A stretch of 64,000 nucleotides of DNA from Salinispira sp. GTDB taxonomy: Bacteria; Spirochaetota; Spirochaetia; DSM-27196; Salinispiraceae. The notes beneath the pieces were generated by a model. The model saw only the letters and a list, made by a program, of their open reading frames with translations. It was not told the DNA's origin and searched no databases. Each line of letters begins with the position of its first letter. Position 1 is the first letter of the stretch. Where the stretch lies: the NCBI GenBank assembly GCA_965226555.1, contig CBDDDG010000010.1, positions 288,001-352,000 of the forward strand, given 5' to 3'. The position numbers and the translations under genes are program-made. Shown here piece by piece: positions 11,142 to 60,582 of this stretch.

Positions 11142-12362
11142 ATGAACAGGTTAACCGATGATGAAATTATTCTTCTCCTGAAGGGCGGCGAGTCAGACAG
11201 AATCGAATATAAAGAATCATTTAAGGGAGATGTTCCGACAAAGGCGCGGAGGGCAGTATGTGCCTTTGCCAATGATCTGCCTAATCATAAAAAACCCGGA
11301 ATACTCATCATTGGCTTGCGGGACAACGGAGAACCTTCCAATTATTCAATTACCGACAGCCTCCTCCGATCATTAACTGATATGGCACGTGACGGAAATA
11401 TAGTGCCGTTACCCGTTCTCTCCGTCGAAAAACGGACCCTGAAAAATACAGAAATGGCAGTTGTAACCGTCATGCCCTCCGACATGCCGCCGATACGATA
11501 TGATGGGCAGATATGGATTCGCATCGGCCCCCGCCAAGCTATTGCCAACAGACAGGAAGAGCGCATTCTCAATGAAAAAAGGCGGTACAAAGATATTCCC
11601 TTCGATATTTGCCCGGTACCCTCGGGGAAAATTTCCGACCTGTCCAAGTCCATTTTTGAAAACGACTATCTTCCTGCAGCCTTTTCACCGGATGTTCTGA
11701 AGGAAAACAACCGCAGCTATGAGGAACAGCTTTCATCGTGCAAAATGATTGTTTCACCGGATGATACGACCCCGACAATTCTCGGTCTGCTCGCTATCGG
11801 AAAATCTTCGCAGGATTTTATTCCCGGGGCATCAATTCAATTTCTGAGAATTAATGGAACTGAATTAACAGATGATATAATTGATGAAGAGAAAATCGGC
11901 GGAAACATTGCCGAAGTCCTGCGCCGCATAATTGAGAAACTCACCTCACACAGCCGTACTGCCATCGATGTAACATCTGCCCCAACTCATAATATGAAAC
12001 CGACATATCCCATGACAGCCATACATCAGATTGTGTACAATGCCGTCATGCACAGAACCTACGAGGGAACAAACGCGCCAACACGGATATATTGGTATAA
12101 TGACCGTATTGAAATTACCAGCCCCGGAGGACCGTACGGGAATGTTACCCCGGAAAATTTCGGTGAACCGGGAATAACCGATTACCGGAATCCTAACATT
12201 GCAGATGTTATGAAAACCTATGGCTTTGTACAGGCCTTCGGAAGGGGCATTGATATAGCGCGCGCAGCGCTCGAAGAAAACGGAAATCCGAAACCGGAGT
12301 TTGAAGTAGATAAAAGTATTATCATGTGTATTATCAGAAATAAGAAAAAAGGCGAGACATGA
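11142..12362 (+). CDS. Schlafen/AlbA_2 domain plus HATPase_c_4 (RecG C-terminal-like) protein
   Basis: ESDRIEYKES..AVCAFAN..GILIIGLRDNG; NAVMHRTY..DRIEITSPG..RNPNIA..GRGI. Confidence 0.8.
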   Translation: MNRLTDDEIILLLKGGESDRIEYKESFKGDVPTKARRAVCAFANDLPNHKKPGILIIGLRDNGEPSNYSITDSLLRSLTDMARDGNIVPLPVLSVEKRTLKNTEMAVVTVMPSDMPPIRYDGQIWIRIGPRQAIANRQEERILNEKRRYKDIPFDICPVPSGKISDLSKSIFENDYLPAAFSPDVLKENNRSYEEQLSSCKMIVSPDDTTPTILGLLAIGKSSQDFIPGASIQFLRINGTELTDDIIDEEKIGGNIAEVLRRIIEKLTSHSRTAIDVTSAPTHNMKPTYPMTAIHQIVYNAVMHRTYEGTNAPTRIYWYNDRIEITSPGGPYGNVTPENFGEPGITDYRNPNIADVMKTYGFVQAFGRGIDIARAALEENGNPKPEFEVDKSIIMCIIRNKKKGET

Positions 12363-13381
12363 GACCTCCGGTATTGACCTTTTTTAACAATAAAGGCGGC
12401 GTTGGCAAAACCTCACTTGTATATCATCTTGCATGGATGTATGCAAAACTGGGTAAGCGGGTAGTCGTTGCCGATTTTGACCCTCAGGCAAATCTCACGG
12501 CAGCGTTTCTGGACGAAAATACAATAGAAAACCTCTGGACTGACGGACACGCGGGCTCAACAATCTACCAATCGATAAAACCATTGACCGGGGTTGGAGA
12601 CATTGCCGAACCTCAATTGGAAAAAATTGATACAAACCTCTTCCTCATACCCGGCGATGTTGAGCTATCAAATTATGAAGATATTCTCTCCACCGAATGG
12701 CCGCAGAGTATGAATGACAGAAATCTGTACCGTCCGCTGCGTATTCTCAGCGCTTTCTGGCAAGTCATCCAGATGGCAGAGAATAAACTGGCGGGAACTG
12801 AAATGGCGGTTGATATTGTTCTTATTGATATTGGGCCGAATCTTGGCGCCATAAACCGCTCTGCATTATTGGCAACCGATTATGTTGTTATACCCCTCGG
12901 GGCTGATCTTTTCTCCCTGCAGGGGCTCAAAAACCTCGGACCGACCCTGCGGGAATGGAGGATAAACTGGAAAAAACGCCTCAATAACTGGAGTAATAGT
13001 AGTGAGAAACCGGATCATCCTCGTTTTATGCTTCCCTCAGGCAGCATGAGGCCTATTGGATACCTCTGCCAGCAATATGGAATCCATCTGAATCGTCCGG
13101 TGAAGGCATATGACAAATGGGTCCGCCGCTTTCCTCGAATGTATCGGAAATCTGTGCTCAATAAAGATGAGAAAAAAGATATCGCACTGGAAAATGACCC
13201 GTACTGTCTGGCAACAATGAAACATTACCGCAGTCTGGTACCAATGGCGCAGGAACACCGCAAGCCCCTGTTCATGCTCACATCGGCAGACGGCGCCATC
13301 GGCGGTCATGCCAATGCCGTTACAAGTGCATACAACGATTTTCAGCAGCTGGCCAAAACAATATCCCATAAAATGACCTGA
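12359..13381 (+). CDS. ParA/AAA_31-family ATPase
   Basis: FFNNKGGVGKTS deviant Walker A, DFDPQANLT, DIGPNLGAINR; ATGA overlap. Confidence 0.88.
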   Translation: MRPPVLTFFNNKGGVGKTSLVYHLAWMYAKLGKRVVVADFDPQANLTAAFLDENTIENLWTDGHAGSTIYQSIKPLTGVGDIAEPQLEKIDTNLFLIPGDVELSNYEDILSTEWPQSMNDRNLYRPLRILSAFWQVIQMAENKLAGTEMAVDIVLIDIGPNLGAINRSALLATDYVVIPLGADLFSLQGLKNLGPTLREWRINWKKRLNNWSNSSEKPDHPRFMLPSGSMRPIGYLCQQYGIHLNRPVKAYDKWVRRFPRMYRKSVLNKDEKKDIALENDPYCLATMKHYRSLVPMAQEHRKPLFMLTSADGAIGGHANAVTSAYNDFQQLAKTISHKMT

Positions 13382-13382
13382 C

Positions 13383-13940
13383 ATGGGGAAAATGGAACAC
13401 GCCATGGGGCAATTTCTTATGTATACGGATGAAGACGGCACACTGAAGCTGGATGTCCGTTTTGAAAATGAATCCGTATGGCTGACTCAGCAGTTAATGG
13501 TGGAGCTGTTCCAAACAACTAAACAGAACATAAGTCTCCATATTCAAAACATTTACGAAGAAGGTGAGCTTTTACCGGAAGCAACTGTCAAGGAATACTT
13601 GACAGTTCAAACTGAGGGGAAGCGCGCAGTAAAGCGTATGCTGGATTACTACAATTTGGACATGATTATTTCGGTTGGTTACCGAATAAAGAGCCATGTA
13701 GCAACCCGTTTTCGTATGTGGGCAACACAGAAAATAACCGACATCTACACCACAAGCATCGACTACGATCCAAAGCTGGACATGAGCATTGAATTCTTCA
13801 GAACCGTGCAGAACAAAATGCACTGGGCCATTACCGGACAAACGGCCGCAGAAATTATTCATTCCCGCGCTGATGCGGATAAACAGAATATGGGATTAAC
13901 CAATTATCGTGGAGCAAAGGTTCGTAAGCAGGATAATTGA
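13383..13940 (+). pseudogene. RhuM-family (virulence protein-like) gene, internally deleted and truncated
   Basis: ESVWLTQQLMVELFQTTKQNIS..YNLDMIISVGYRIKSHVATRFRMWAT..FFRTVQNKMHWA; 3' end cut by the mosaic duplication. Confidence 0.8.
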
Positions 13941-14514
13941 GAAACTCACCTCACACAGCCGTACTGCCATCGATGTAACATCTGCCCCAACTCATAATAT
14001 GAAACCGACATATCCCATGACAGCCATACATCAAATTGTGTACAATGCCGTCATGCACAGAACCTACGAGGAAACAAACGCGCCAACACGGGTATATTGG
14101 TATAATGACCGTATTGAAATTACCAGCCCCGGAGGACCGTACGGGAATGTTACCCCGGAAAATTTCGGTAAACCGGGAATAACCGATTATGTTGTTATAC
14201 CCCTCGGGGCTGATCTTTTCTCCCTGCAGGGGCTCAAAAACCTCGGACCGACCCTGCGGGAATGGAGGGTAAACTGGAAAATGACCCGTACTGTCTGGCA
14301 ACAATGAAACATTACCGCAGTCTGGTACCAATGGCGCAGGAACACCGCAAGCCCCTGTTCATGCTCACCGCGGCAGACGGCGCCATCGGCGGTCATGCCA
14401 ATGCCGTTACAAGTGCACACAACGATTTTCAGCGGCTGGCCAAAAAAATATCCCATAATATGACCTGACATGGGGAAAAATACGTGAAACTTCAAACTGA
14501 GGGGAAGCGCGCAG
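13933..14514 (+). repeat. Collapsed mosaic duplicate of four segments of the AlbA_2-parA-rhuM locus
   Basis: 13933-14189=11928-12184; 14181-14281=12874-12974; 14273-14479=13186-13392; 14479-14514~13594-13629. Confidence 0.92.
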
Positions 14515-14750
14515 CTTGCGGCAGACGAATATGAAAAATTTTATGCAAGCCGTCTGAAAATCATGAAAATTACATTCGATCCAAATTTGCGTTAATCGGA
14601 ATGGCGATCTGGATGCGCAGCCCCCGACGCATGGGCGCTCAATATGCTGGCATACAACATCAAAAAGCTTTCTTGGCACCCAGTAACTGAATTTCAGTGA
14701 ATGCCGTCTCGTATTTCAGATGATTTCACATCAAACACCATAAAATAATT

Positions 14751-14818
14751 CAAAGTTTTCCAATGCAAAAGTTTGTCTTAAAAGCAATATCATGGATATT
14801 GTATCCGGCATTACTCAT
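14751..14818 (-). pseudogene. 5' relic of an Rpn-family gene cut by a half palindrome
   Basis: Minus strand MSNAGYNIHDIAFKT matches IHDIAFK of the Rpn at 21350; runs into repeat half-site 14751-14775. Confidence 0.55.
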
Positions 14819-14935
14819 GTATATCTCCTGCTATATCTATAACGGGAGAAATGTTATTTTTAACTGTGTTTTTTGAAAGAATTTTGCAAAATTTGTGAAT
14901 TTTTTTCGGGAGTCGGGAATGGGGCTGGTATGCTC
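14806..14935 (-). repeat. Rpn leader element (~130 bp)
   Basis: Reverse complement is highly similar to 37854-37985; contains CCCGTTATAGATATAGCAGGA. Confidence 0.85.
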
Positions 14936-14979
14936 TGAATGTTGATATTATCCGCTCTGCGCGCAGGCAGAGCGGATAA

Positions 14980-16004
14980 TTAGTGCGATCCGTTCCGCAA
15001 TGCCCGCATTTCCTCATCGCTCAGCCCGGTAACATCCTGAATGTCATGGGCTGAAAATCCTTTGGAAAACATACTGCGGGCCGTTTCTCGAATGCCTTCT
15101 TCACGACCTGTCTGCAATCCTGTCTGAAGTCCTTCTTCACGACCTGTCTGCAATCCTTCCTGCCGACCTGTCTGAAGTCCTTCCTGCCGACCTGTTCGCA
15201 GTCCTTCCTGCCGACCCATTTCCGCAATGCGCGCTCTGAATGTTTCCGCATTCATTCTGAACATTTTCGCTACCTCCTTACCTCTCGGTTCTTTTGTTCT
15301 TTCTGAAACTTTTGCATTGGAAAATTGTGCAAGCACAATTTCCAGTAGCAAAAGTTTCAAATTTGGAATGCTTTCTTTGTGCTTAGCATTCTCCAATTTT
15401 ATAGAAAGTTTTGCCTCTGGCAAAACTTTGCTTCTAACTGGTTCATTAGCGTGTCAAAGTCTATAACAATTCCGAACATCGAATCTACCACGCCGATAAA
15501 TTCCTTTATCAGCTCCAGCGATTCCTCATTCAGCATTTCTGCTATCGCTTTCTCCACCTTCTGAATGTCCCAATCCGTATTCAGCAGATTTTTCGAGTAC
15601 AGATCAAGGTACATAACAGCCGCAAACATTCTTCCCCGCTGCTGCAGCTGCTCCGCAGAATAATCGCTCTCACTTATCAGCTCGTAAGGAAAAGGGGGCA
15701 AGATACTGCGGGAATTTCCGCTTCCGTTGCTTTCTGACATTCCCGGGCACCTTCCATTTTCTCGTACCATTATAAAACACAATGGGCAGAAATATCAACT
15801 CGCAGTCATCGGGAATTGCGCCGGAGCGGTGAATGTTCCGGTAGAGAAGGTTTGTGTACTCCGACATGCGGAGGGGCATGTCTTTGTCCATGCGCCTCCG
15901 ACAAAGCGTTGCAGAAATTGGAGCATTATTGCGGGTTGGAACAGCAGAGAGCGGTATCCTTGGTCGTAGGGAACGGGGGCGGGTTTTTCTTTGAAATCGA
16001 TCAT
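14980..16004 (-). pseudogene. Rpn-family (YhgA-like) nuclease/putative transposase, degraded, with intact C-terminal small ORF 14980-15264
   Basis: YDQGYRSLL, DKDMPLRMSEY, LPIVFYNG..W fragments in different frames; GRQEG repeats and ARSMF..VTGLSDEE tail; repeat module inserted at 15305-15430. Confidence 0.8.
15305..15430 (-). repeat. ~125-bp repeat module, copy 2
   Basis: Reverse complement of 646-772. Confidence 0.9.
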
Positions 16005-16020
16005 ATAATTCCTCCTGAAC

Positions 16021-16074
16021 GAAAGTTTTGCTACTGGAAATTGTGCTTGCACAATTTTCCAATGCAAAAATTTC
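16021..16074. repeat. 54-bp palindromic core
   Basis: GAAAGTTTTGCTACTGGAAATTGTGCTTGCACAATTTTCCAATGCAAAAATTTC. Confidence 0.9.
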
Positions 16075-16210
16075 TGAACGTTTCTTTCTGAATAGGGGAG
16101 CTCCCATGGCGACATGGTCCCATGGTGAATTCTCTCCTCTATATCTGTGACGGGTAAAAAGTCATTTTTGACTATGTTTTTTGAGAAAATTTGAAAAAAG
16201 TTTGCCTTTG

Positions 16211-17321
16211 CTGGATTCAACATTTGAAGTGCACCACTTCGGGCCCACTGTGAGATAGTTTAAGCATTCTATCAAAAGCTTCCTGCGGTGTCAAATAGTT
16301 CAGAATTTTTCGCGGTCGATTGTTGAGCGACCGCTGAAACTCCAGTATTTTCCCTGCGTCAATCATATTGAAATCGCAGGACTTGGGAAATTGTCGGCGT
16401 ATGAGACCGTTGGTGTTCTCTACCGTTCCCTTTTCCCAACTGTGATACGGCTGGCAAAAATATACCTGCATACCAGTCAGCCGCTCAATGTTCTTATGAC
16501 GAGCGTTCTCGCTTCCGTTGTCGAGAGTGAGTGTCCTCCGCAGGTCGGGGGGCAATGACCCGAGCAGCGAAATGGCATGATGAGCAAAGGTAAATGATGT
16601 TCTATCCGCAAGCGGAGCAATGAAGGTCATCCGGGTTGCCCGTTCAACAAATACCGCCACAGCGCTGCGCTGACCCTTTCCAATTATACAATCGCCTTCC
16701 CAATGTCCTTCCTCGACACGGGCGTCAACCTCTTTTGGGCGCTCGCTAATTCCTTTCTTGCCAACGACATCGGGGTTCTTCTTACAATAAGCTCTCCGGT
16801 CGCAGCGTCTCTTCCGTTTCTTTCTCCGGGTCGGCAGCAGAACGCACCACTGACGATTTTTCGGTCGGTAACAATACTGGTAAATGGCTTCATGGCTTAT
16901 CGATTGACCGGTAATATCAATACCAATGCGCCCTGAGATTTGCTCGGGAGACCAGCTGCATTCCAGCTTTTCATGAACATAGTTCAGGACAATATCATTT
17001 TTCAGATGCGTATACTGACCTTTGTTTTTCCGACGCTCCCGCGCCTTCCGCTGAGCCTGATGAGCTACATACCGCCCGTGATCATTCCGGTTACGGTTCA
17101 ATTCGCGGTAAATGGTCGTATGGCAACACCCAATGGCCCGGGCTATCTCCCTGACGGGATATCCTTTTCGTCGATAATAGGCAATATCCTCATCACTTAT
17201 CCGTATCCAACTGATTATACTGTCTGTGCGCCACCTTTTTGTCCTCCTCGTAGTGGTTTTTTCTTATACTCACTATATCTCAGAGGGCGGGGAGGTGGTG
17301 CACTTATGGTTGAATTCACCG
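16211..17321 (-). mobile_element. IS30-family insertion sequence
   Basis: Imperfect TIRs ATTCAAC...AAGTGCACCAC at 16215-16240 and 17292-17315; possible TTTG duplication; IS30 transposase inside. Confidence 0.85.
16217..17234 (-). CDS. IS30-family transposase (frameshift near 17195)
   Basis: WSPEQISG, GHWEGD, TLTLDNGSE, WEKGTVENTNG, NNRPRK; the N-terminal HTH (VREIARAIGCCHTTIYREL) is out of frame with GTG 17234. Confidence 0.9.
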
Positions 17322-17402
17322 TTTGCAAAATATTACTATTGCATGGATTCTTTGGGTATGATATTATCCAACAATCTCAATTGTATCGTGAGGAGTTATA
17401 TC

Positions 17403-19031
17403 ATGAACATCAAATTATACACGGGAATCCGCTTTCTATTCTGCGCGATGTGCATAGCATTAATTGCTGCATGTCCGATGCCGGAACCCGAGCCAATGCC
17501 GGAACCCGAGCCAACTGTGCCGGGTACAATAGGTGCCCCAGACCTTAAAGCGGGGAATGGGCAACTAACGGTTAACTGGACTGTGCCGAACAACGGCGGC
17601 AGCCCCATTATCGGGTATGCGCTGCAATATCGCACAGGCGAGGGAGAATGGACCGGAATTAGCTCCGGTTTCACCGGCACAAGCTACACCATTATGAACC
17701 TGACAAACGCCGCTGAGTACCACGTACAGGCTCGCGCCGTCAATGCAGTCGGCGCTGGGTCATGGTCGGAATCTGCCGTTGCAACTCTCCCTACCGCTGC
17801 AACTCCCCCTGCCACCATTCCTGACGCGCCGGCTGCTCCAACCCTATATGCGGGCACTGGGCGGCTTGTTGCGAGATGGTCTGAACCGGACGATAACGGC
17901 AGCGCCATTACCGGGTATGAGCTGATATATCGCGAAGTCGGCGTAACTACATGGACGGCTGCTTCCGGCATCACCGGAACAGACCACACCATTACCGGCC
18001 TGACAAACGGTGCTCTCTACCAAGTGCAGATGCGCGCCATCAACGCGGTTGGTACTGGACCCTGGTCTGCACCCGTAACGGAATCGCCGCTATTTTCTCC
18101 GACAGAGATTCCTTCAGGGGAGGAAGGGTCTATAAGCCTTTTGGCTGCCGATAATGCCATTGTTACTGCCAGTATTGCCAATGAGAACCTGAACATCAAC
18201 TTTTCTTTGACCACGGTAGAACCAGACCCTCTTTCGGTTACTGGAGGAGACCTTATGGTAACCCCCAATGGGGCGCCCACAGGAGTCACCATTCCGACAG
18301 TTAATGCGAGTACCGGAATTGTTACGGTTACCGCGAGTACAACAGCAGGAACATATCTGTTATATGGTGAAACAGAAAATGGCGACATACTCTTTGCCGA
18401 ATATTTCTATGTTACCGTGAGTCCACAAGATGGCGATGGTACTGGTGTTACTGCTAATGATGGTGATGGCGGTAACGATGAACTGAAAGCAGCGGTAGAT
18501 GCGGGAATAACTGCTTGGGGACAAACTGCCGATTTCAACTACATTATTACCACGGCAGTAACGGATATGTCTGAAATTTTCAATTCCAAAACCACATTTA
18601 ATGGCGATATCTCACTCTGGGATACTGCGGCGGTAACGAATATGAGCGGTATGTTTATTAGCGTAACAGTATTCAATGGCGATATCTCACTCTGGGACGT
18701 CAGTAAGGTAACGGATATGTCCTATATGTTCAATAATGCAAGCGTATTCAATGGCGATATCTCCGGCTGGGATGTCAGCTTGGTAACGAATATGTCCCAG
18801 GCTTTCCGGCAAGCAAGAGCATTTAATCGTGATATCTCAGCTTGGGAGCCTGCTGCGGTAACGAATATGAGCCGTATGTTTACTGACGCAGATGCATTCG
18901 ATCAGGATCTTGAGGAGTGGAAGGATCATTTGCCGCTCATTAATGCTAATGGCAAATACACCGGAACCAAAACAGATGTGTTTAAGAATTCCGGCGTGAC
19001 AGGTACTCTGGTGCCGTCATGGTATGAGTAG
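17403..19031 (+). CDS. Lipoprotein with two fibronectin type III domains and DUF285/BspA-like repeats
   Basis: Lipobox IAAC, NGGSPIIGY/QARAVNAVG Fn3 motifs, FNGDISLWDVSKVTDMSYMF repeats; SD GAGGAG. Confidence 0.88.
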   Translation: MNIKLYTGIRFLFCAMCIALIAACPMPEPEPMPEPEPTVPGTIGAPDLKAGNGQLTVNWTVPNNGGSPIIGYALQYRTGEGEWTGISSGFTGTSYTIMNLTNAAEYHVQARAVNAVGAGSWSESAVATLPTAATPPATIPDAPAAPTLYAGTGRLVARWSEPDDNGSAITGYELIYREVGVTTWTAASGITGTDHTITGLTNGALYQVQMRAINAVGTGPWSAPVTESPLFSPTEIPSGEEGSISLLAADNAIVTASIANENLNINFSLTTVEPDPLSVTGGDLMVTPNGAPTGVTIPTVNASTGIVTVTASTTAGTYLLYGETENGDILFAEYFYVTVSPQDGDGTGVTANDGDGGNDELKAAVDAGITAWGQTADFNYIITTAVTDMSEIFNSKTTFNGDISLWDTAAVTNMSGMFISVTVFNGDISLWDVSKVTDMSYMFNNASVFNGDISGWDVSLVTNMSQAFRQARAFNRDISAWEPAAVTNMSRMFTDADAFDQDLEEWKDHLPLINANGKYTGTKTDVFKNSGVTGTLVPSWYE

Positions 19032-19056
19032 TTTCATAGCCCGCAGCGGCCAGCCC

Positions 19057-19235
19057 TGCGCTCCACCTCCGGCAGGCGCGGGGGGCTGGTCGGAGGCGTG
19101 CGCCTCCGGGGCTGCTCGCCATGCGTCCGGCTCGCCCATGCGGCTGTTGCTGAGACTGGGCTGGTCGGCGTTGCACGCCTGCTCGCCATGCGGCTGTTGC
19201 TGAGACGGGGGCTGGTCGGAGGCTCCGGCAGGGTT
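19057..19235. repeat. GC-rich dispersed repeat with internal sub-repeats
   Basis: TGCGCTCCACCTCCGGCAGGCGCGGGG..CTGGTCGG; core also at 22607 and 48892, partial at 21226. Confidence 0.75.
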
Positions 19236-19303
19236 TTCGGCAGAATGTCTGCCAGTTGATTTCAGTACCGGAAAAGGCTATTATACATGAGAGGAGACAG
19301 ACA

Positions 19304-19930
19304 ATGCCAGAACTAACCGTACAAGAAATTAAAGACATGATGGCAGAAACGGCAAAGGCCCAAAAGGAGGCTCGAATTGAGGCTGAGCGTCGAGGGAGGG
19401 AAATTGACCTTCGAATGGAAAAGGACAGACAAGAGGCTAAGCGTCGAGGGAAGGAACTGGACCGCCGAATGAAGGAAACCGACCGCAGGCTAAAAAAGCT
19501 CGATGAACTCTTTACCTCCCAGTGGGGCAAGCTCATAGAGAGCCTCGTGGAGGGCGACTTGGTAAAGTTGCTCAAGATGAGAGGAATTACCGTAGACAAA
19601 ACTTTGGTTAGAAGAGAATATATAGAAGTTCCGGGAAAACCGCTTGCCGAGTTTGATCTTATTGCCTGCAACGGCAATGAAACGGTGGTAATTGAAGTTA
19701 AAACCACTCTCAGGGTAGAAGATGTGGATCATTTTCTCAAGAGCATGAAACTATTTCGAACAGCCATGCCCCGCTTTCAAAACGATATTATTTACGGGGG
19801 TGTTGCCTACATAAATGTTGTTGGATCGGCCGATAAATACGCTCAAAAAAAGAAGATCTTTGCCATTAAAGCCACGGGTTCCAGCGCCTCCATTATCAAC
19901 GCCGAAGACTTTGAACCGCAGACATTTTAA
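19304..19930 (+). CDS. Coiled-coil plus PD-(D/E)XK-like protein (DUF3782-like)
   Basis: Charged N-terminal repeats, WGKLIESLV, AEFDLIACNG..VIEVKTTL; SD GAGGAG. Confidence 0.7.
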   Translation: MPELTVQEIKDMMAETAKAQKEARIEAERRGREIDLRMEKDRQEAKRRGKELDRRMKETDRRLKKLDELFTSQWGKLIESLVEGDLVKLLKMRGITVDKTLVRREYIEVPGKPLAEFDLIACNGNETVVIEVKTTLRVEDVDHFLKSMKLFRTAMPRFQNDIIYGGVAYINVVGSADKYAQKKKIFAIKATGSSASIINAEDFEPQTF

Positions 19931-19936
19931 TTCATA

Positions 19937-19990
19937 GAAAGTTTTGCCTTGGAAAATTGTGCAAGCACAATTTCCAGTAGCAAAACTTTC
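19937..19990. repeat. 54-bp palindromic core
   Basis: GAAAGTTTTGCCTTGGAAAATTGTGCAAGCACAATTTCCAGTAGCAAAACTTTC. Confidence 0.9.
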
Positions 19991-20757
19991 GTATTGAGCA
20001 CAAAAGCGCGTATGATCCAAAGGTCAGCGAACAGTTCGATAAATACCAGAAAGCCCTCATAAACAGCAGGACATTTCAGGCGCAGACCGATCTTCTTGTT
20101 CTGGTGCTATGGTACCATGGCGAACTGATATGGGAAGGAGATCTCAGTTTCCACAGTTCAGGGGATGTGCATACACACATACCGGAAAAATTGTACACAA
20201 TGATGGAAAAATACCTTGCGAGGCCAAAGGTTCTCAATAGGCCTGTGATGCTCGATGTGAATAGGATGTGAGCGAGGAGGAGTTTACCCGGGGGTCAGAC
20301 GGGGTTATGTTGACAGGGGGAGCTCTGTGCTATATTATGCGGAAAGTCAGTAAGACAGGCGATGAAGACTTGAAACTGGATACACGCTTTGAAAAAATCA
20401 ACAGGGAAATAAATCCCGAAACAAAATTTTGCCTGAGGCAAAATTTTCTACAAAATGCGAGAATGCTAAGCACATAGAGTCATCCAAATGTGAAACTTTT
20501 GCTACTGGAAATTGTGCTCTGCACAATTTTCCAATGCAAAAGTTTCTGGAGGAGAAAGACGTATGATGAAAAAAGTTCAGATGAGCGATTGGTTTGTCAA
20601 CCAAGGCATGGAGAAAGGTCGCGCGGAGGGGCATATTGAGGAGCGGAGAAAAAACGCCCGCAGTATGTTTTCGGAAGGCTTGTCGACAGAGGCTGTTCAG
20701 AGGATTACCGGGCTGAGCGATGAGGAAATGCGGACAGTGCGGAACGGATCGCATTAA
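19991..20757 (+). pseudogene. Rpn-family relic lacking its N-terminus, with intact C-terminal small ORF 20563-20757
   Basis: IEHKSAYDPKVSEQFDKYQKAL..LWYHG aligns to the Rpn at 21350; tail EERRKNARSMFSEGLSTEAVQRITGLS. Confidence 0.8.
20422..20546 (+). repeat. ~125-bp repeat module, copy 3
   Basis: Same three-part structure as 646-772. Confidence 0.88.
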
Positions 20758-20766
20758 TTGGAGCCG

Positions 20767-21178
20767 CTCGGCCTAGGATGTCAGTACGGTAACGAATATG
20801 TCTGCTGGGAGCCTCTGGAAACTCGAAATTTTCATGATTCATTGCGTAAAACAACGTTGTTTTAAGCTCAATCATGCGGACACTGGTTAATTTTTCTGCC
20901 AGATATTAGGTTTCCAGAGGTTCCCTGCTATGTTTCAAAACGCAATCAAATTCAATAGCGATATCTCGGGCTGGGATGTCAGTTCGGTAACGACTATGAT
21001 CGCTATCTTCGCTTTCGCAAGCGCATTCAATCAGGATCTTGAGGAGTGGAAGGAACATTGGACGGCCGAAACCGGCAATAAGCTTACTACCGCTGATCCA
21101 TCCAAATATACCGGAACCACAACAAATATGTTTCAGGGTTCCGGCGTAACAACAACGCCGTCATGGTATGAGTATTAG
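20767..21178 (+). pseudogene. 3' fragment of a DUF285/BspA lipoprotein gene interrupted by a MITE
   Basis: DVSTVTNMSA[MITE]MFQNAIKFNSDISGWDV...PSWYEY; 3' end homologous to 18900-19050. Confidence 0.8.
20807..20925. mobile_element. 119-bp MITE
   Basis: TIRs GGGAGCCTCTGGAAAC / GTTTCCAGAGGTTCCC (15/16 match); TGCT target duplication at 20803-20806 and 20926-20929. Confidence 0.88.
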
Positions 21179-21349
21179 TTTCATAGCCCATAGCCCGCAG
21201 CGGCTAATGAAACGTTGCAATTCAACTCAGGCAGGCGCGGGGCTGGTCAAACAGTAATATCTCAAAATAATAGAAACTTTTTACAAAAATTTCTCATTTT
21301 GTCATTCATATCTCGTTTTTCTCCCGTCATAGATATAGCAGGAAAATGT

Positions 21350-22411
21350 ATGAAAAAATCATCCCAGAGCACAGGCCATATCCACGACATAGCCTTCAAG
21401 ATCGCCTACTACAGAACCCCCCGTATGATTCCCGACCTGCTACGGCTGTTCTGTGAGGATACGACTCTTGCCAAGCTGGACTTGGGCAAAATTCGTATTG
21501 AAAACCCCAGCTACATTGCAGGAAAAAAGAACCTTCACTGCGATCTCATTGTCAGCGCCCCCTTCTTGTCAGACCCCGACCGGAAGGCCCTATTCATTAT
21601 TGAACACAAAAGCTACCAGCATAAACATGCTCTCACACAGATCGATAATTATCAGTATGCCCTCAGAAACAGCAATGTGTACAATGAAAATGATGCTATC
21701 TATATACTGCTGCTCTACCATGGAAAAAATGAATGGAACCTCCCACTCACATTTTACAGTTCGCATGGAACTCCAGCTTCCGAATCCCTTACCGAAGGCA
21801 CGGTGGATGTCAGGGCGAGAGTGTCGTACATTGTGCGCGATCTGAGGCGAATGGACAAAAGGCAGTTGGCATTGCGTTTCGATGGAAAACGATATACATC
21901 GACTGCGTTGTGGTATATAATGCGAGATAATGAGATGGATGCTGAGGGGCTGAAAGAAATTGCGCAGCTCCTGAACGGTCTGTCATCACAAGACTTTACT
22001 GATCTGGCAGAGAGTGTGCTAGGGTACCTGAAAGATCTGGGACTGTATGGACAGTTTGAGAAAATTGACAGGGAACTATATTCTGAAGGAGAAAACAGTA
22101 TGCGGACATATAATATTACCAACGCCTTCGTCAGAGAAGGCATTGCGAAGGGCCGGATTGAGGGTCTTGAACAGGGAATGGAGAAAGGCATTCTGAAAGG
22201 CCGGGTTGAGGGTCTTGAGCAGGGTATCACAAAGGGCAGGGCTGAGGGCATTGAGAAAGGACTGCGAACAGGTCGCGCTGAGGGGCATATTGAGGAGCGG
22301 AGAAAAAACGCCCGCAGTATGTTTTTGGAAGGGTTGTCGACCGAGGCTGTTCAGAGGATTACCGGGCTGAGCGATGAGGAAATGCGGACATTGCGGAACG
22401 GATCGCATTAA
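21350..22411 (+). CDS. Rpn-family recombination-promoting nuclease/putative transposase (intact)
   Basis: HDIAFK, LHCDLIVS, IIEHKS, LLLYHG motifs; EGLEQG/EKG repeats and terminal HTH. Confidence 0.85.
   Translation: MKKSSQSTGHIHDIAFKIAYYRTPRMIPDLLRLFCEDTTLAKLDLGKIRIENPSYIAGKKNLHCDLIVSAPFLSDPDRKALFIIEHKSYQHKHALTQIDNYQYALRNSNVYNENDAIYILLLYHGKNEWNLPLTFYSSHGTPASESLTEGTVDVRARVSYIVRDLRRMDKRQLALRFDGKRYTSTALWYIMRDNEMDAEGLKEIAQLLNGLSSQDFTDLAESVLGYLKDLGLYGQFEKIDRELYSEGENSMRTYNITNAFVREGIAKGRIEGLEQGMEKGILKGRVEGLEQGITKGRAEGIEKGLRTGRAEGHIEERRKNARSMFLEGLSTEAVQRITGLSDEEMRTLRNGSH
22100..22411 (+). CDS. Putative in-frame intragenic small protein (RpnS-like antitoxin), 103 aa
   Basis: GAAGGAGAAAACAGTATG: SD plus in-frame ATG at 22100. 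Confidence 0.6.
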   Translation: MRTYNITNAFVREGIAKGRIEGLEQGMEKGILKGRVEGLEQGITKGRAEGIEKGLRTGRAEGHIEERRKNARSMFLEGLSTEAVQRITGLSDEEMRTLRNGSH

Positions 22412-22569
22412 TTGAGCAGGGGCAAGCTCAGCTCCGGAGTGAGTATGTACTCAATATGCTTAAGGATGGTCTGTCTATGGACCTTATTCATAAGATTACC
22501 AAGCTCAGCGGGGATGAAATTCGAGCATTTACGAAAAACGAAAATGGCAGGGAAAACGGTAGAGCGTAG
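22411..22569 (+). pseudogene. Orphan alternative Rpn C-terminal tail
   Basis: Translates IEQGQAQLRSEYVLNMLKDGLSMDLIHKITKLSGDEIRAFTKNENGRENGRA* with no start codon at its 5' end. Confidence 0.75.
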
Positions 22570-22606
22570 CACAGAGCTTTGCGCGCCTGAGCGTAGCGCA
22601 GAGCTC

Positions 22607-22695
22607 TGCGCTCCACCTCCGGCAGGCGCGGGGGGGCTGGTCGGCGCTCCGCGCCTGCTCGCCCAAGCATCCGGGCTGGTCGGCGCTCCGCGCCT
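22607..22695. repeat. GC-rich dispersed repeat
   Basis: Matches 19057-19093; internal duplication of GGGCTGGTCGGCGCTCCGCGCC. Confidence 0.75.
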
Positions 22696-22728
22696 TCACG
22701 CATCATAAAATTACTCAGGGGGAAAAAC

Positions 22729-46783: not shown

Positions 46784-48886
46784 ATGTGTAATTGTAATCC
46801 ACTACGAAAAGTACGGGGGAAGTTTCCTGTGTTAGTTGTCATAAGCGTGGTTCTCGCAGCCTTACTTACCGGATGTCCAATGCCGGAACCCAATATGGGG
46901 GGGGGGTAATGTAAGCCCGCCGGGCACAATGGATGCCCCAACTCTTGAAGCGGGAGATGAGCAACTCATTGCAACATGGACTGCGCCAACAAACACCGGC
47001 GGCAGCGCCATTACCGGCTATGAACTGCAATATAGCTCAGACGGCGGAACCACATGGTCGGTCCTCCTATTGAAGTCGCCGCGCCAGCCGCAAAGACCAT
47101 CATCACCGGACTGATCAACGGCAGCAGTTATGAAGTACAGGTACGCGCCGTCAACGCGCAGGGCGCAGGCGGCTGGTCGGACAGCGCATTAGCAAGCCCT
47201 GTTGCCGTTCCCCATGCTCCGAACGCTCCCGGGCTTACCCCGGAAAATAGTCAACTAACAGTTTATTGGGCTGCGCCGACCGATAACGGCGGAAGCGCCA
47301 TTACCGGCTATGAGCTGCAATATAGACAATATAGCTCAGACGGCGGAACCACATGGTCGGATCCTCCTATTGAAGTTGCCGCGCCAGCCACAAAGACCGT
47401 CATTACCGGCCTGAGCAACGGCAGCAGTTATGAAGTACAGGTACGCGCCGTCAACGCGCAGGGCGCAGGCGGCTGGTCGGACAGCGCATTAGCAAGCCCT
47501 GTTGCCGTTCCCCATGCTCCCGACTTGCCAAGCCTCACCGTGGAAAATGAGCAACTTCGCATTTCATGGGCAGCGCCGACCAACACCGGCGGCAGCGACA
47601 TTACCGGCTATGACCTGCGCTACGCACTAAACAATTCACCCCTGCCGGACGATCCGCAAATTAGCAACACAAGCAATACCTCTCATACCATTATGCAACT
47701 GGAAATTGGCAGCCGCTACACCGTACAGGTGCGCGGCATCAACGCTGAGGGCAGGGGTCCGTGGTCAGAATCCGCAACGAAAACATTCCCGCTCATTGCG
47801 ACACAGGTGCCGGAGGGTACAGAGGTCTTTGTCATTCTTTCGACTGTTGACAACGCAATTGCCAATGCCGCAAACCCAAACATTACTGTGGTTCCAGTTA
47901 CTTCCCCGGCATCAACGGTCGTCTTGCCGACAATTGATGCGGCTACCGGAATTATTATGGTTACCGCAAGCACAAGCCCCGGAACATATACGGTATCGGG
48001 CGCAGACGGAGGAATCGAACTGTTTGACCCCGAAGAGTTCTCTGTTACCCTGAGTCCTCCTACTAACGCTGAACTGAAAACAGCGGTAACTAATGGAATA
48101 TCAAACTGGGGACAAACTGCCGACCTCAACTACATTCTTACTACGGCAATAACGGACATGTCCGAAGTGTTCAAAGATAAAACCGCATTCAATGGAAATA
48201 TCTCGGGCTGGACTGTCAGCGCTGTAACGGATATGTCGGAAATGTTCAATAACGCAGACGCATTCAATCGTGATCTTAATAATTGGAATGTCAGTGCGGT
48301 AACGGATATGTCGGAGATGTTCAGGGACACAAACTCATTCAATGGCAATATCTCCAGCTGGACTGTCAGTGCGGTAACGAATATGTCGGAAATGTTCAAT
48401 AACGCAGACGCATTCAATCGTGATCTTAATAATTGGAATGTCAGTGCGGTAACGGATATGTCGGAGATGTTCAGGGACACAAACTCATTCAATGGCAATA
48501 TCTCCAGCTGGACTGTCAGCGCGGTAACGAATATGTTCGGAATGTTCAATAACACAGCTGCATTCAATGGCGATATCTCCGGTTGGGATGTCAGCTCGGT
48601 AACGAATATGTCGGGGATGTTCGCTAACACAGGCGCATTCAATGGCGACATCTCGGGCTGGGATGTCAGTAAGGTAACGACTATGGCCAATATGTTCCAG
48701 GGCGCAAGCGCATTCAATCAGAATCTTACTGCATGGGGCGGGACAGATGAAGGGAGCTTACGGCGTGATCCTAATGATAATAGCAAATATGGAGTAACGG
48801 TAACGGATATGTTTACGAGTTCCGGCGTTGTGGATACCGGGGGCGTGGGTGTTCCCGATTGGTATACTGCGATTATTGCCTATTAA
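46784..48886 (+). CDS. Lipoprotein with three Fn3 domains and DUF285 repeats (frameshifts at G10 46897-46906 and ~47061)
   Basis: MCNCN..LLTGC lipobox; Fn3 repeats; DUF285 repeats; paralogous to 17403-19031. Confidence 0.82.
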
Positions 48887-50340: not shown

Positions 50341-50376
50341 CAGCGCAGCAAACTGCGGCAGGAATTGGAGGGATCA

Positions 50377-52082
50377 ATGAAAAAATCGAAACAAAAGTGG
50401 ATGGATATCGATTGGGATATCCTGAGTCCATCAGAATTAATTGACATTCTGAAGACAAAGACCGATGTGAATGCGGCTAACGATGTCGGATTAACGGCGC
50501 TCTCGTATGCTATTTTGAATAGGAGAGACATTACCATTATCCATGCAATTCTCGAAGCCGGAGGAGATGTGAATGCCCGTGATGATAATGGCAGAACAGC
50601 TCTTATGCTTGCGTCCGGGAACAGCGAAGGCCCCGACATTGTTCGCGCCCTCATTGAGGCAGGAGCCAATGTGAATGCCGCCGATGCGATAGGCTTTACC
50701 GCCTTGGGATATGCGACTATGATCAATCAAACTCCATCTGTTATTCGCGCCCTCATTGAAGGCGGAATTAATGTGAATGCTCATGATGATAATGGCAAAA
50801 CGCCTCTTATACTTGCGGCAGGGAACAATAAAAGCCCCGACATTGTTCGCGCCCTCATTGACTGCGGAGCAGATGTGAATATTGTTGAGCATGATACGGG
50901 ACTGACAGCCCTCATGCACGCGGCTCAGCGCTCTGAAAACCCCGACATTGTTCGCGCCCTCATTGACTGCGGAGCAGATGTAAACACTATTGACTCGCAT
51001 GGCATGTCAGCTCTCGATCATGCGGCCGTATTCGGTAAAAATATCTATATAATCCATGCCATTGTTGAGGGGGGAGCCGATGTGAATGCCGCCAATGAGA
51101 ATGGACTAACAGCCTTAATTTTAGCGATTACGGCAAACGCGGATCCCGACATTATTCGCGCGCTCATTGTATGCGGGGCAGATATAAATGCCGTCGATGC
51201 GAAGGGACGGACAGCCCTCGACCACGCGCGGGAGCAAAAAAAGAAATACGCGGAGAAACTTCTTACCAAACACGGCGCAAAAAGCGGAAAAGAACTCCCC
51301 AAGGATGGCGCGCAGAAGCACAGCAAACTGCGGCAGGAATTGGAGGGATCAATGAAAAAATCGAAACAAACGTGGATGGATATCGATTGGGATAGCCTGA
51401 GTACATCAGAATTAATTGCCCGCCTGAAGGATAATGTCGATGTGAATACGGCTAACGCTTCTGGATTAACGGCGCTCTTATATGCAATTCTGGGCAATAG
51501 AGACATTAGCATTGTTCGCGCCCTCATTGAGGCCGGAGCCGATGTGAGCGCGATCAATGACTACGGCGTAACAGCCCTCATGGCGCGGCAACAAACGCCA
51601 AGACCCCCGCTCTTATCCACACCCTCATTGAGGCCGGAGCCGATGTGAATGCGGTCAATGCGGACAACGTAACACCCCTCATGTGCGGGGCGGCGAGCAA
51701 TGGAAGGGTCTCTGTTATTCGCGCGCTCATTGAGGCCGGAGCCGATGTGAATGCGGTTGATTTAAACGACATGTCACCCCTCATGGGCGCGGCTGTGCGC
51801 AATAAGAACCCCGCTGTTATTCACGCGCTCATTAAGGCCGGAGCCAATGTGAATGCCTCCATCAAAGGTATAGGATTAACAGTTCTCATGATCGCGGCTA
51901 AAAACGCCGAAGACCCCTCTATTATGTACACGCTCCTTGAGGACGACGCCGATGTGAATGCAACCGATAACAAAGGATGGACAGTCCTCGACCACGCGCT
52001 AAAACAAAAAAAGGAGAGCGAGGTGCGGCTTCTCAGGGAGTTCGGAGCCAAACGCGGAAAGGAGCTCCGCAAAACAGACTAA
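50377..52082 (+). CDS. Ankyrin-repeat protein made of two fused paralogous units (frameshift ~51585)
   Basis: Repeated GADVNA.D..G.TALM motifs; second MKKSKQ start with its own SD at 51352. Confidence 0.88.
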
Positions 52083-52159
52083 GGAATATCTCATATGCAA
52101 TTATGAACAATGAAGACATTCCTGCTATCCGCCTCCTCATTGTGGACGGCGCGGGGCTG

Positions 52160-52250
52160 TGAAGCGCAGCAAACTGCGGCAGGGAACAGCGCAAACCCCG
52201 ACATTATTCGCGTCCTCATTGAACTCGGAGGAGAAATAAATGCGAAACAC
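52160..52250 (+). pseudogene. Third ankyrin-unit relic
   Basis: CAGCAAACTGCGGCAGG leader fused to GNSANPDIIRVLIELGGEINAK; abuts the IS3 remnant. Confidence 0.6.
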
Positions 52251-58878: not shown

Positions 58879-58956
58879 ACGTAGTATATATGATTTTTTT
58901 TGCTTTATGCAAAAGTTTATGTTATACTATGAATAAGATTTTATGGAGGTAATTGT

Positions 58957-60582
58957 ATGGACACAGGACACAGGACACAGGACACAGGACACAGGACACA
59001 GGACACAGGACACAGGACACAGGACACAGGACACAGGACACAGGACACAGGACACAGGACACAGGACACAGGACACAGGACACAGGACACAGGACACAGG
59101 ACACAGGACACAGGACACAGGACACAGGACACAGGACACAGGACACAGGACACAGGACACAGGACACAGGCATTATATGCGCTCATAGGGCTTTTTATCG
59201 CAGGGGTACTTCTCGTTGCCTGCGAAATGTATGATGCAAACGGCTTTAATGACGCCGGCATTCATCAGGAGACCGGCACGCGCTACGACCCGAATGGTTA
59301 TGACAAAGACGGGTATGCGGGAAACGGCTATGACAAAGACGGCTATAATGCTGCTGGTTACGATATTGATGGCTATAACGCAGATGGTTACGATGCGGAG
59401 GGCTACAATAGAAATGGTTATAAAGCAGACGGCTACAATGCAGCCGGTTTCAATGCTGACGGTAATCATCGTAACGGAACGAAATACAACCCTGAAGGGT
59501 ATGACGTAAACGGTTACGACAAAAACGGCTTTAACACTGAAGGCAAACACCGCGACACTGGCATGGAATACAACCTCTACGGTTATGGCAAAGATGGCTA
59601 TAACGCAGCCGGTTTCAATGCTGACGGTGATTATCGTGATGGAACGAAATACAACCCTGAAAGTTATGACGAACAGGGTTATGATGAAGACGGCTTTAAT
59701 GTTGATGGCTATGACATAAACGGTTACGACAAAAACGGCTTTAATGCTGAGGGCATTAACAGGGCAACCGGCATGATCTACGACCGATATGGTTATGCGA
59801 AAGACGGATTCACTGCCGCAGGGGATCACCGAGACGATTTCATACTTGCCGCCGTGAATACTGACCCGGGAGGAATCTGGTCGAATGGAACAACAATGTG
59901 GGTGTCCGATAAAATGGACAACAAAATATATGCCTACAACACGATTACCAAGGAACGCGATGCGGGCAAAGATTTCAACACGCTTGTTGTCGTGGATGCG
60001 GGCGGCGATGGAACTCTGGACTCCACCCCCGGAGGAATCTGGTCAGATGGAACAACAATGTGGGTACTAAATATCCCCGTCACCCTCTATGACCACCCCA
60101 GTAAAAGAATCTATGCCTATAATATGGATAGCGCCAAGGCAAACGTACCTTCAAAAACTATTTCCTATACTCAAAATGAAATAAGAAATATTTGGTCAGA
60201 TGGAACAACAATGTGGTTAACGTCTTATACTGTGAGCATTCCTATTTATGCCTATGATATACAGGGGAATAGCGCCGTTGTCGGCAAAAATATTAGACTT
60301 GTGTCAAATACTTCTCCTGGGAACATCTGGTCAGATGAAACAACACTGTGGGTGGCGGATGGTAACAGGGATGTAATTGACGCCTACGTGTTTAACGCAA
60401 ACGGTGGAACATTAACGCGGGATACAACAAAAGATTTCGCCACAATTGTTGTTAATGGGAATAATATGAAACCCCGCGGCATCTGGTCGAATGGAACAAC
60501 CATGTGGGTGGCCGATTCTACCACTAACAAAATTTATGCCTACGATATGGCAACCGGAGCGCGTCCGCCGAAAACAGAATAA
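58957..60582 (+). CDS. Surface lipoprotein with GYD/GYN repeats and C-terminal IWSDGTTMWV (propeller-like) repeats
   Basis: SD GGAGGT, lipobox LLVAC, two repeat domains. Confidence 0.8.
   Translation: MDTGHRTQDTGHRTQDTGHRTQDTGHRTQDTGHRTQDTGHRTQDTGHRTQDTGHRTQDTGHRTQDTGHRTQALYALIGLFIAGVLLVACEMYDANGFNDAGIHQETGTRYDPNGYDKDGYAGNGYDKDGYNAAGYDIDGYNADGYDAEGYNRNGYKADGYNAAGFNADGNHRNGTKYNPEGYDVNGYDKNGFNTEGKHRDTGMEYNLYGYGKDGYNAAGFNADGDYRDGTKYNPESYDEQGYDEDGFNVDGYDINGYDKNGFNAEGINRATGMIYDRYGYAKDGFTAAGDHRDDFILAAVNTDPGGIWSNGTTMWVSDKMDNKIYAYNTITKERDAGKDFNTLVVVDAGGDGTLDSTPGGIWSDGTTMWVLNIPVTLYDHPSKRIYAYNMDSAKANVPSKTISYTQNEIRNIWSDGTTMWLTSYTVSIPIYAYDIQGNSAVVGKNIRLVSNTSPGNIWSDETTLWVADGNRDVIDAYVFNANGGTLTRDTTKDFATIVVNGNNMKPRGIWSNGTTMWVADSTTNKIYAYDMATGARPPKTE
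58959..59168 (+). repeat. (GGACACA)30 heptanucleotide tandem repeat
   Basis: 210-bp perfect array starting at the last base of the ATG. Confidence 0.97.

Follow-up and report, generated by a model that had tools for sequence, protein, structure and literature searches.

The window, a stretch of 64,000 nt from the genome of Salinispira sp., contains a clade C Rpn locus at about 20 kb and a clade B Rpn locus at about 15 kb, each of which is interrupted by a hairpin module. At the clade C locus, on the plus strand, the module is a 125-nt hairpin MITE (20422..20546) made up of a short hairpin (20422-20448), a spacer (20449-20491) and a long hairpin (20492-20546). It follows a reading frame ending in FEKINREINPE, its flanks (CGAAA and TGGAG) do not form a clean 5-nt duplication, and the interval 20345-20590 folds with z=-3.76. 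Downstream of the module lie the native SD of the internal small ORF (20548..20555), which empty alleles also possess, and an intact stand-alone clade C RpnS ORF of 64 aa (20563..20757) that matches the C-terminal part of TIGR01784 (E 3.9e-8, below the cut-off). Upstream of the module, codons 81-250 of the nuclease part persist as a relic (19993..20421) whose 5' part is gone and which bears a 2-nt frameshift near 20267 and an 84-nt deletion near 20370. A native internal sigma70 promoter, TTGACA-17-TATTAT, is predicted within these Rpn codons (20310..20338, plus strand). The relic is now joined to the end of the upstream gene by a long hairpin (19937..19990, plus strand), which is what remains of an insertion at clade C codon 80.

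The clade B locus is read from the minus strand. Its hairpin MITE (15305..15430) lies 40 nt before the start of an intact stand-alone clade B RpnS ORF of 94 aa (14980..15264, SD at about 15272-15279) and carries a TTGCCA-16-TAAAAT sequence (15423-15396) directed at RpnS. The nuclease relic (15432..15980) bears a deletion of about 153 nt and a frameshift, and a native internal promoter is predicted within it at 15798-15769. A separate long hairpin with a perfect 5-nt duplication (16021..16074, minus strand) occupies the 5' UTR of this clade B gene. Two further Rpn features are a 14-codon 5' stub of a clade C gene that terminates in half a hairpin (14751..14818, minus strand), and an intact clade A gene encoding 353 aa (21350..22411, plus strand; PF04754 39.1 bits, cut-off 21), with a predicted internal RpnS start at 22100 that would yield 103 aa.

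An earlier sequence-only reading of this DNA had located both modules (20422-20546 and 15430-15305), the SD, the 64-aa and 94-aa ORFs, the hairpin cores at 19937 and 16021 and the intact gene at 21350-22411, all of which we find as described, and both small C-terminal ORFs are whole, as it stated. It had also treated the clade C relic and the 21350 gene as a filled and empty pair. The insert is indeed absent from true clade C empty alleles, which read PEGERVMM at C10:234879 and PGGERVMM at C12:36260 and lack the 130-nt insert, but the 21350 gene belongs to clade A, is 38% identical to the clade C relic and is thus the wrong empty site. Likewise, the divergent clade B gene does have its module ahead of the RBS, as proposed, but the gap between module and RpnS start is 16 nt in clade C and 40 nt in clade B. 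The suggestion that second cores bracket the nuclease half does not hold, since the hairpin at 16021 is a separate 5'-UTR insertion, an equivalent of which precedes 10 of the 32 intact clade B genes, and the hairpin at 19937 is the codon-80 remnant. These are unrelated insertions, and we rejected a composite transposon on this account. In contigs of four runs, joints that skip both modules (14700-22600) were not counted as strain polymorphism, since these could stem from empty paralogues.

Several other repeats and multi-copy genes occur in the window. An IS30-like element with an rve domain (16210-17320) lies ahead of the clade B relic, and other copies of it interrupt Rpn genes. A GC-rich palindromic repeat family, distinct from the module, is present at 19031-19240 and 22569-22700; its members follow gene ends and are frequent beside Rpn loci. 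The interval 19304-19930 encodes a small coiled-coil and restriction-endonuclease-like gene with weak Hjc/AHJR matches and about 9 genomic copies. Lipoproteins with Fn3 and DUF285 repeats (one whole, one relic) and genes with ankyrin-like 102-nt repeats, all multi-copy in the genome, are found at 17226-19031, 20767-21178, 48075-48803 and 50342-52243. Partial copies of ATPase-like and ParA-like genes have fused into a chimeric relic at 11923-14479, a 14-nt tandem array of about 20 units (58917-59217) starts right after a module, and the window also encodes an archaeal-type PheT, which is consistent with a spirochaete.

Identity of the hairpin module

Genome-wide, the module consists of a 27-nt hairpin, a spacer of 43-46 nt that comes in two types, and a 54-55-nt hairpin, and its parts are also found singly. 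There are 623 clusters, of which 500 elements in 378 distinct flank groups are left after excluding lone spacers and inner hairpins. These roughly 500 copies range from 27 to 155 nt, have terminal inverted repeats and encode no transposase. The genome contains 305 short and 283 long hairpins, and a shuffled genome contains none of either, indicating that the family is not a product of chance. An exact 5-nt flank repeat is present at the true boundary in 87 of 432 hairpin-bounded elements and in none of the 432 when the boundary is offset by 1 or 2 nt.

A candidate partner is a 1340-nt IS5 element with five uninterrupted full-length copies and a 364-codon open frame. Its transposase belongs to the IS5 family (NF033581, 228.7 bits, cut-off 140), with distant relatives (best full-length match 46%). 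The module ends read GAAA(C/G)TTTTGC and the IS ends GAAACCTTTG(C/A)A, and one IS end fragment terminates in a MITE terminus. Perfect 5-nt duplications, mostly T-N-N-N-A, flank 7 of 9 IS5 copies, and outside Rpn genes a perfect duplication is present at 24 of 34 composite modules. Given a candidate IS5-family partner with nearly the same ends and a 5-nt duplication of the same AT-rich kind, the most fitting identity for the module is a MITE related to IS5. The earlier claim that the module is mobile is likewise borne out by true filled and empty pairs, by the IS5-like ends and by the 5-nt duplications that flank most copies outside Rpn genes. A second IS5-like element (C14:98461-99955) is flanked by 5-nt repeats and has ends that are related but less similar, and some of its copies have been struck by the module and by a GC-rich repeat.

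The module was absent from 30 related genomes, 7 genomes of the family and a JGI scan, and a GTDB pattern scan did not find it among the matches listed. No Rfam family was matched at its gathering score, and a search of solved structures gave no match. Two other identities were rejected: no terminator is flagged within the module, and it is not an in-frame protein insert, because the 129-nt insert at site A83 holds a stop. Outside Rpn genes, an SD lies within 30 nt of 26 of 93 elements with near-perfect duplications, compared with 318 of 3000 intergenic control sites, as counted with a rough gene model. This bias agrees with the preference for destabilised promoter regions reported for IS5 (PMC5493358).

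The Rpn family, its module sites and its lesions

A profile search, in which 150 of 164 candidates were scored, identified 140 PF04754 matches in the 2.98-Mb genome, whereas 30 related genomes queried with a clade A protein gave 0-10 weak Rpn matches each. The family, of at least five clades, occupies roughly 5-7% of the genome. We recovered 66 full-length Rpn ORFs and assigned them by identity clustering to clades A (30), B (29), C (5) and D (2), among which between-clade identity is 23-38% (26-38% among A, B and C); further types are clade E and a second D type. The proteins have the PF04754 domain with PD-(D/E)XK catalytic residues, and motif residues are kept in 20/29 clade A, 30/31 clade B and 4/4 clade C intact copies scored. 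Clade A proteins score below the TIGR01784 cut-off. The C-terminal part, RpnS, consists of variable 4-residue repeats downstream of an internal RBS and in-frame start; clades A-C have 134 such starts with an SD, and the ORF lengths step by 4. RpnS sequences are nearly all distinct among intact copies (29/30 in A, 32/32 in B, 5/5 in C), and tails have been swapped or homogenised between clades, with 43 of 130 intact RpnS sharing 90% identity or more with the tail found in the window. Native promoter-like sites are predicted inside 26/30 intact clade A, 25/32 clade B and 5/5 clade C genes, and in clade C the TTGACA-17-TATTAT site is present in 5/5 intact and 5/5 filled copies. A relic of the 5' part of a clade E gene precedes many clade A and C genes (e.g. 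C14:203169), suggesting mosaic cassettes. Clade E genes themselves are riddled with several modules each, some of them nested (C17:7500-10350, C14:104350-105100, C23:11400-12300 and C9:6690-7030).

A module lies just ahead of the RpnS start at 31 of the 134 clade A-C starts (16 in clade A, where the filled allele is at the homologous codon, 10 in B and 5 in C), and in each clade these derive from one founder site, all in the same orientation. Modules also occupy the coding sites A83, A103, A195, A227, B161, C15 and C80, two sites in clade D and six in clade E. Our hand tally comes to 18 coding sites, 14 of them not pre-RBS, plus two 5'-UTR sites. With 4 of the 18 within 45 nt of an RpnS start (p=0.02, for a distance window picked after the fact), or 3 of 17 if the homologous A and C sites represent one event (p=0.08), module position departs from random only modestly. 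The sequence-only reading had named random module positions as the outcome that would count against it, and the answer is mixed: sites are mildly enriched ahead of RpnS and otherwise scattered. None of the 134 clade A-C RpnS ORFs contains an element, although for the 10 A-C sites this absence reaches only p=0.05 by length. Filled alleles occur in many combinations among Rpn copies, which we take as a probable mark of conversion among paralogues. At A195 (e.g. C10:187409), the most amplified site, the module has entered some 10 nt beyond the -10 box of the RpnS promoter predicted inside the gene, close to where transcription would be expected to begin. Those at A83, C80 and E88 fall right before the catalytic I-E-(H/F)-(K/Q)-S motif (window 19937-19995), the clade E insertion involving a different module type and orientation.

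We compared decay of the nuclease part and of RpnS at 153 clade A-C loci, after dropping three contig-edge loci. Both parts are intact at 63 loci, only the nuclease part is broken at 65, only RpnS at 1 and both at 24, many of the last being small fragments. This 65:1 asymmetry is what an essential antitoxin predicts, and it answers a comparison proposed in the earlier reading: the small ORFs do not share the decay of the other parts. Because the copies are not independent, the event-level test gives only p≈0.02; it counts 19 distinct sole lesions in the nuclease part (one of them at a contig edge) and 1 in RpnS (p=0.019 at a 26% length share). The proposal that the long protein is disabled while the small one is spared is supported for the family overall, but is not special to the pre-RBS site. 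Insertion of the module leaves a frameshift or stop in the long ORF. At least one module is carried by 48 of the 65 nuclease-broken loci, while the pre-RBS module is present at 31 and absent from 34.

Decay of the nuclease half, also proposed earlier, is evident at both window loci but not throughout the filled alleles. Of the 16 filled copies in clade A, 15 carry an additional structural lesion and the remaining one has Ala at the predicted catalytic Asp65, whereas a full-length tail-less nuclease ORF of 254 aa with D14, D66, E87 and Q89 survives at 6 of the 10 filled loci in clade B, among them a C10 locus whose RpnS starts at 261488. Since tail-less RpnD is reported to be much less toxic but not dead (PMC5350276), an insertion ahead of the RBS probably weakens the predicted toxin rather than abolishing it. 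RpnS, for its part, survives every upstream lesion because its own RBS and predicted promoter lie inside the gene. Published work shows that RpnS is an antitoxin that is translated separately, has a transcript of its own and acts specifically on its cognate and according to repeat number, and that it already exists as a separate gene (10.1101/2023.05.02.539157).

The explanation that we consider probable is that a non-autonomous hairpin element with IS5-type ends has spread in an expanded Rpn family, and that its insertions likely persist and spread only where RpnS, the predicted antitoxin, stays intact. The IS5 transposase would move the module, and duplication and gene conversion would then have carried a few founder insertions to other paralogues. 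Where the module lands ahead of the RBS, RpnL would lose its tail and be weakened, whereas a hit within RpnS would deprive an active copy of its predicted antitoxin and be eliminated by selection. The position directly before the RBS would be occupied mainly because the element has a general preference for such places and because it is the furthest point at which an insertion would do no harm. Transcription of RpnS would start from the predicted native promoter within the Rpn codons, to which the module would add a second one in clade B alone. The lesion asymmetry most likely arises because losing RpnS from an active copy would be lethal, not because the element targets or drives RpnS.

It is also conceivable, if unlikely, that the element is a neutral parasite of a dispensable family, in which Rpn copies are not meaningfully toxic, modules gather in the AT-richer nuclease part, and RpnS is spared as a short, target-poor and conversion-repaired segment. 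The AT content of RpnS is indeed lower than that of the nuclease part, and AT-rich target sites are fewer in it (6/22, 1/17 and 5/30). The sharing of tails across clades means that conversion could repair RpnS without selection, and the six tail-less nucleases with catalytic residues are evidently tolerated. For the nuclease part, intact and broken copies have similar singleton nonsynonymous:synonymous counts (29:24 and 17:13 in clade A, 12:11 and 11:8 in clade B), and of 67 stand-alone RpnS just one has the same sequence as the RpnS of an intact gene. However, the same skew is produced by lesions other than modules, since 13 of the 19 sole nuclease-part lesions are deletions, IS insertions, frameshifts or truncations. 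RpnS is also lost from 24 of 89 nuclease-broken loci but from only 1 of 64 nuclease-intact loci, a difference of p=1e-5 at the copy level that is inflated by small fragments.

Junctions and predicted expression

The junctions of Rpn-resident modules are mostly not IS5-product-like, which our preferred explanation leaves open. Excluding nested copies and copies without clean ends, a perfect 5-nt duplication flanks 2 of 16 modules at Rpn sites, as opposed to the 24 of 34 composite modules elsewhere (p=2e-4), and the second base after the module is G at 16/16 Rpn sites and at 4/34 elsewhere (p=1e-9). Empty alleles are mostly without this capped G and fit 0-1 duplicated nt plus 2-nt caps. By hand tally, 16 of 18 Rpn sites are in gene orientation (p=0.001), and homologous codons have been struck in different clades (A83, C80 and E88; A245 and C250). 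An IS5 copy and two modules inside Rpn genes keep perfect duplications, indicating that the locus alone does not erode them.

The simplest reading of these junctions is that the Rpn-resident modules represent an older wave moved by an enzyme since lost; their spacers vary more than those of intergenic modules, which are near-identical, and a few capped copies are located elsewhere. We rejected a genome-wide capped wave represented by decayed solo elements, which show no excess of G at position 2. A second insertion route, in which modules enter Rpn genes at near-blunt breaks that the Rpn nucleases may themselves introduce into the genes encoding them, would account for the G cap, the scarcity of duplications, the gene orientation and the homologous codons, but we judge it improbable. 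Modules of one subtype are concentrated near Rpn sequence, 27 of 36 lying within 300 nt of it, a zone that holds 5 of the 40 modules of the other subtype and makes up 10% of the genome, although the groups are not all independent. In addition, we found no match to the Y1 transposase PF01797 in this genome, which is 93.5% complete (the control was positive in 6 of 14 genomes), and no reverse transcriptase, TnpB or Ku. Against this route stand the spacer diversity, which fits an older wave, the occurrence of a few capped modules outside Rpn genes, the incompleteness of the genome, the low sequence specificity reported for RpnA in vitro (PMC5350276) and the lack of transposase behaviour of rpn genes (10.1101/2023.05.02.539157). 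In its fullest form, Rpn nucleases would open their own genes for duplication-free, oriented capture of hairpins, continually making a library of antitoxin-only alleles from about 140 loci, some with a module promoter. We hold this to be just as doubtful, but it would, if true, give Rpn proteins a DNA-mobilising role and provide a self-limiting mechanism for runaway toxin expansion.

The sequence-only reading further suggested that the element may drive an orphan antitoxin at 20395. For the clade C locus this is not supported: the predicted native internal promoter is also present in empty alleles, and a predicted module promoter is gained only in clade B. The module's TTGCCA-16-TAAAAT is intact in 10/10 filled clade B loci, and the A and C module variants have no promoter match at 10/12. 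MITE-borne promoters are known (PMC10969869), and on motif matches a module promoter driving RpnS is possible for clade B only. With the module in place, opening the start region is also computed to cost 1.5-3.8 kcal/mol more, rising from 8.9 to 12.7 kcal/mol in clade A, 7.7 to 9.2 in B and 7.7 to 10.1 in C (empty to filled). Cross-neutralisation of the 21350 gene product by the proteins starting at 15264 or 20563 appears unlikely, given their different clade and length or repeat number under the E. coli specificity rules.

Selection for the pre-RBS placement, as a source of driven, stand-alone antitoxins that buffer intact Rpn toxins, could draw on the common position and orientation in three clades only 26-38% identical and their amplification to 16, 10 and 5 copies, on the clade B promoter, and on the 22 of 64 stand-alone RpnS for which there is an intact gene of like clade, length and tail type, but it is very unlikely: other sites, A195 (18 copies) and A83 (14), are amplified to a like degree, the A and C variants offer no promoter match, the start region becomes costlier to open, modules elsewhere show no gene-ward orientation bias (4 vs 2 of 26), the sole clade D insertion at an RpnS start has lost the RBS, and proximity to intact genes is no greater for stand-alone RpnS than for the intact genes themselves (19/64 vs 19/65 within 2.5 kb).

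Comparison with known systems

The module shares many features with the Correia element (PMC10969869), which is likewise short and gene-less, has terminal inverted repeats and a target duplication, occurs in many copies often ahead of genes, carries a sigma70-like promoter in some copies, inactivates genes and becomes nested. It differs from the Correia element in its hairpin-spacer-hairpin build, each hairpin carrying terminal repeats and also occurring alone, in ends that match an IS5-family element, and in having a second junction class, without duplication, that is concentrated in one gene family. With the insertion of IS5 at destabilised promoter-proximal DNA (PMC5493358) it has in common IS5-family ends and a bias toward gene starts, the E. 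coli IS5 case having been shown under stress. REP, BIME and REPIN sequences and IS200/IS605-derived elements have the same hairpin-linker-hairpin layout, but most intergenic copies here have a 5-nt duplication and IS5-like ends, and the genome yielded no Y1 transposase. The duplication-free, oriented junction class, on the other hand, would resemble HUH products. The literature searched, with subscription journals mostly outside its scope, contained no report of MITE insertions in rpn genes, including in the accessible text of PMC3184786.

The Rpn genes correspond closely to the RpnL/RpnS system (10.1101/2023.05.02.539157), with the same PF04754 nuclease part, the D, D and E-x-(K/Q) motifs, an internal SD and start, 4-residue repeats, an internal promoter-like site and tandem duplicates. 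Toxin-antitoxin function of Rpn has been shown experimentally with E. coli proteins only. Lying in a distant lineage, this genome amounts to a natural mutagenesis of about 150 Rpn copies in which lesions pile up in the nuclease part and RpnS is spared, supporting the toxin-antitoxin model. It also supplies ready-made alleles, namely six split, tail-less clade B genes and 64 stand-alone RpnS of nearly all different sequence, and the second junction class bears on whether Rpn nucleases take part in DNA movement. Stand-alone small genes have already been described in the RpnL/RpnS system (ypaA/rpnE_S, DUF4351). The family here, however, has 140 matches compared with the 26-copy example in that work, and its stand-alone RpnS stem from in-place breakage of the nuclease part, mostly by a MITE, rather than from downstream duplicates, which shows a simple route by which such genes arise. 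The parts are known, comprising Rpn toxin-antitoxin genes, stand-alone RpnS and IS-derived MITEs, and the arrangement is new and its scale unusual.
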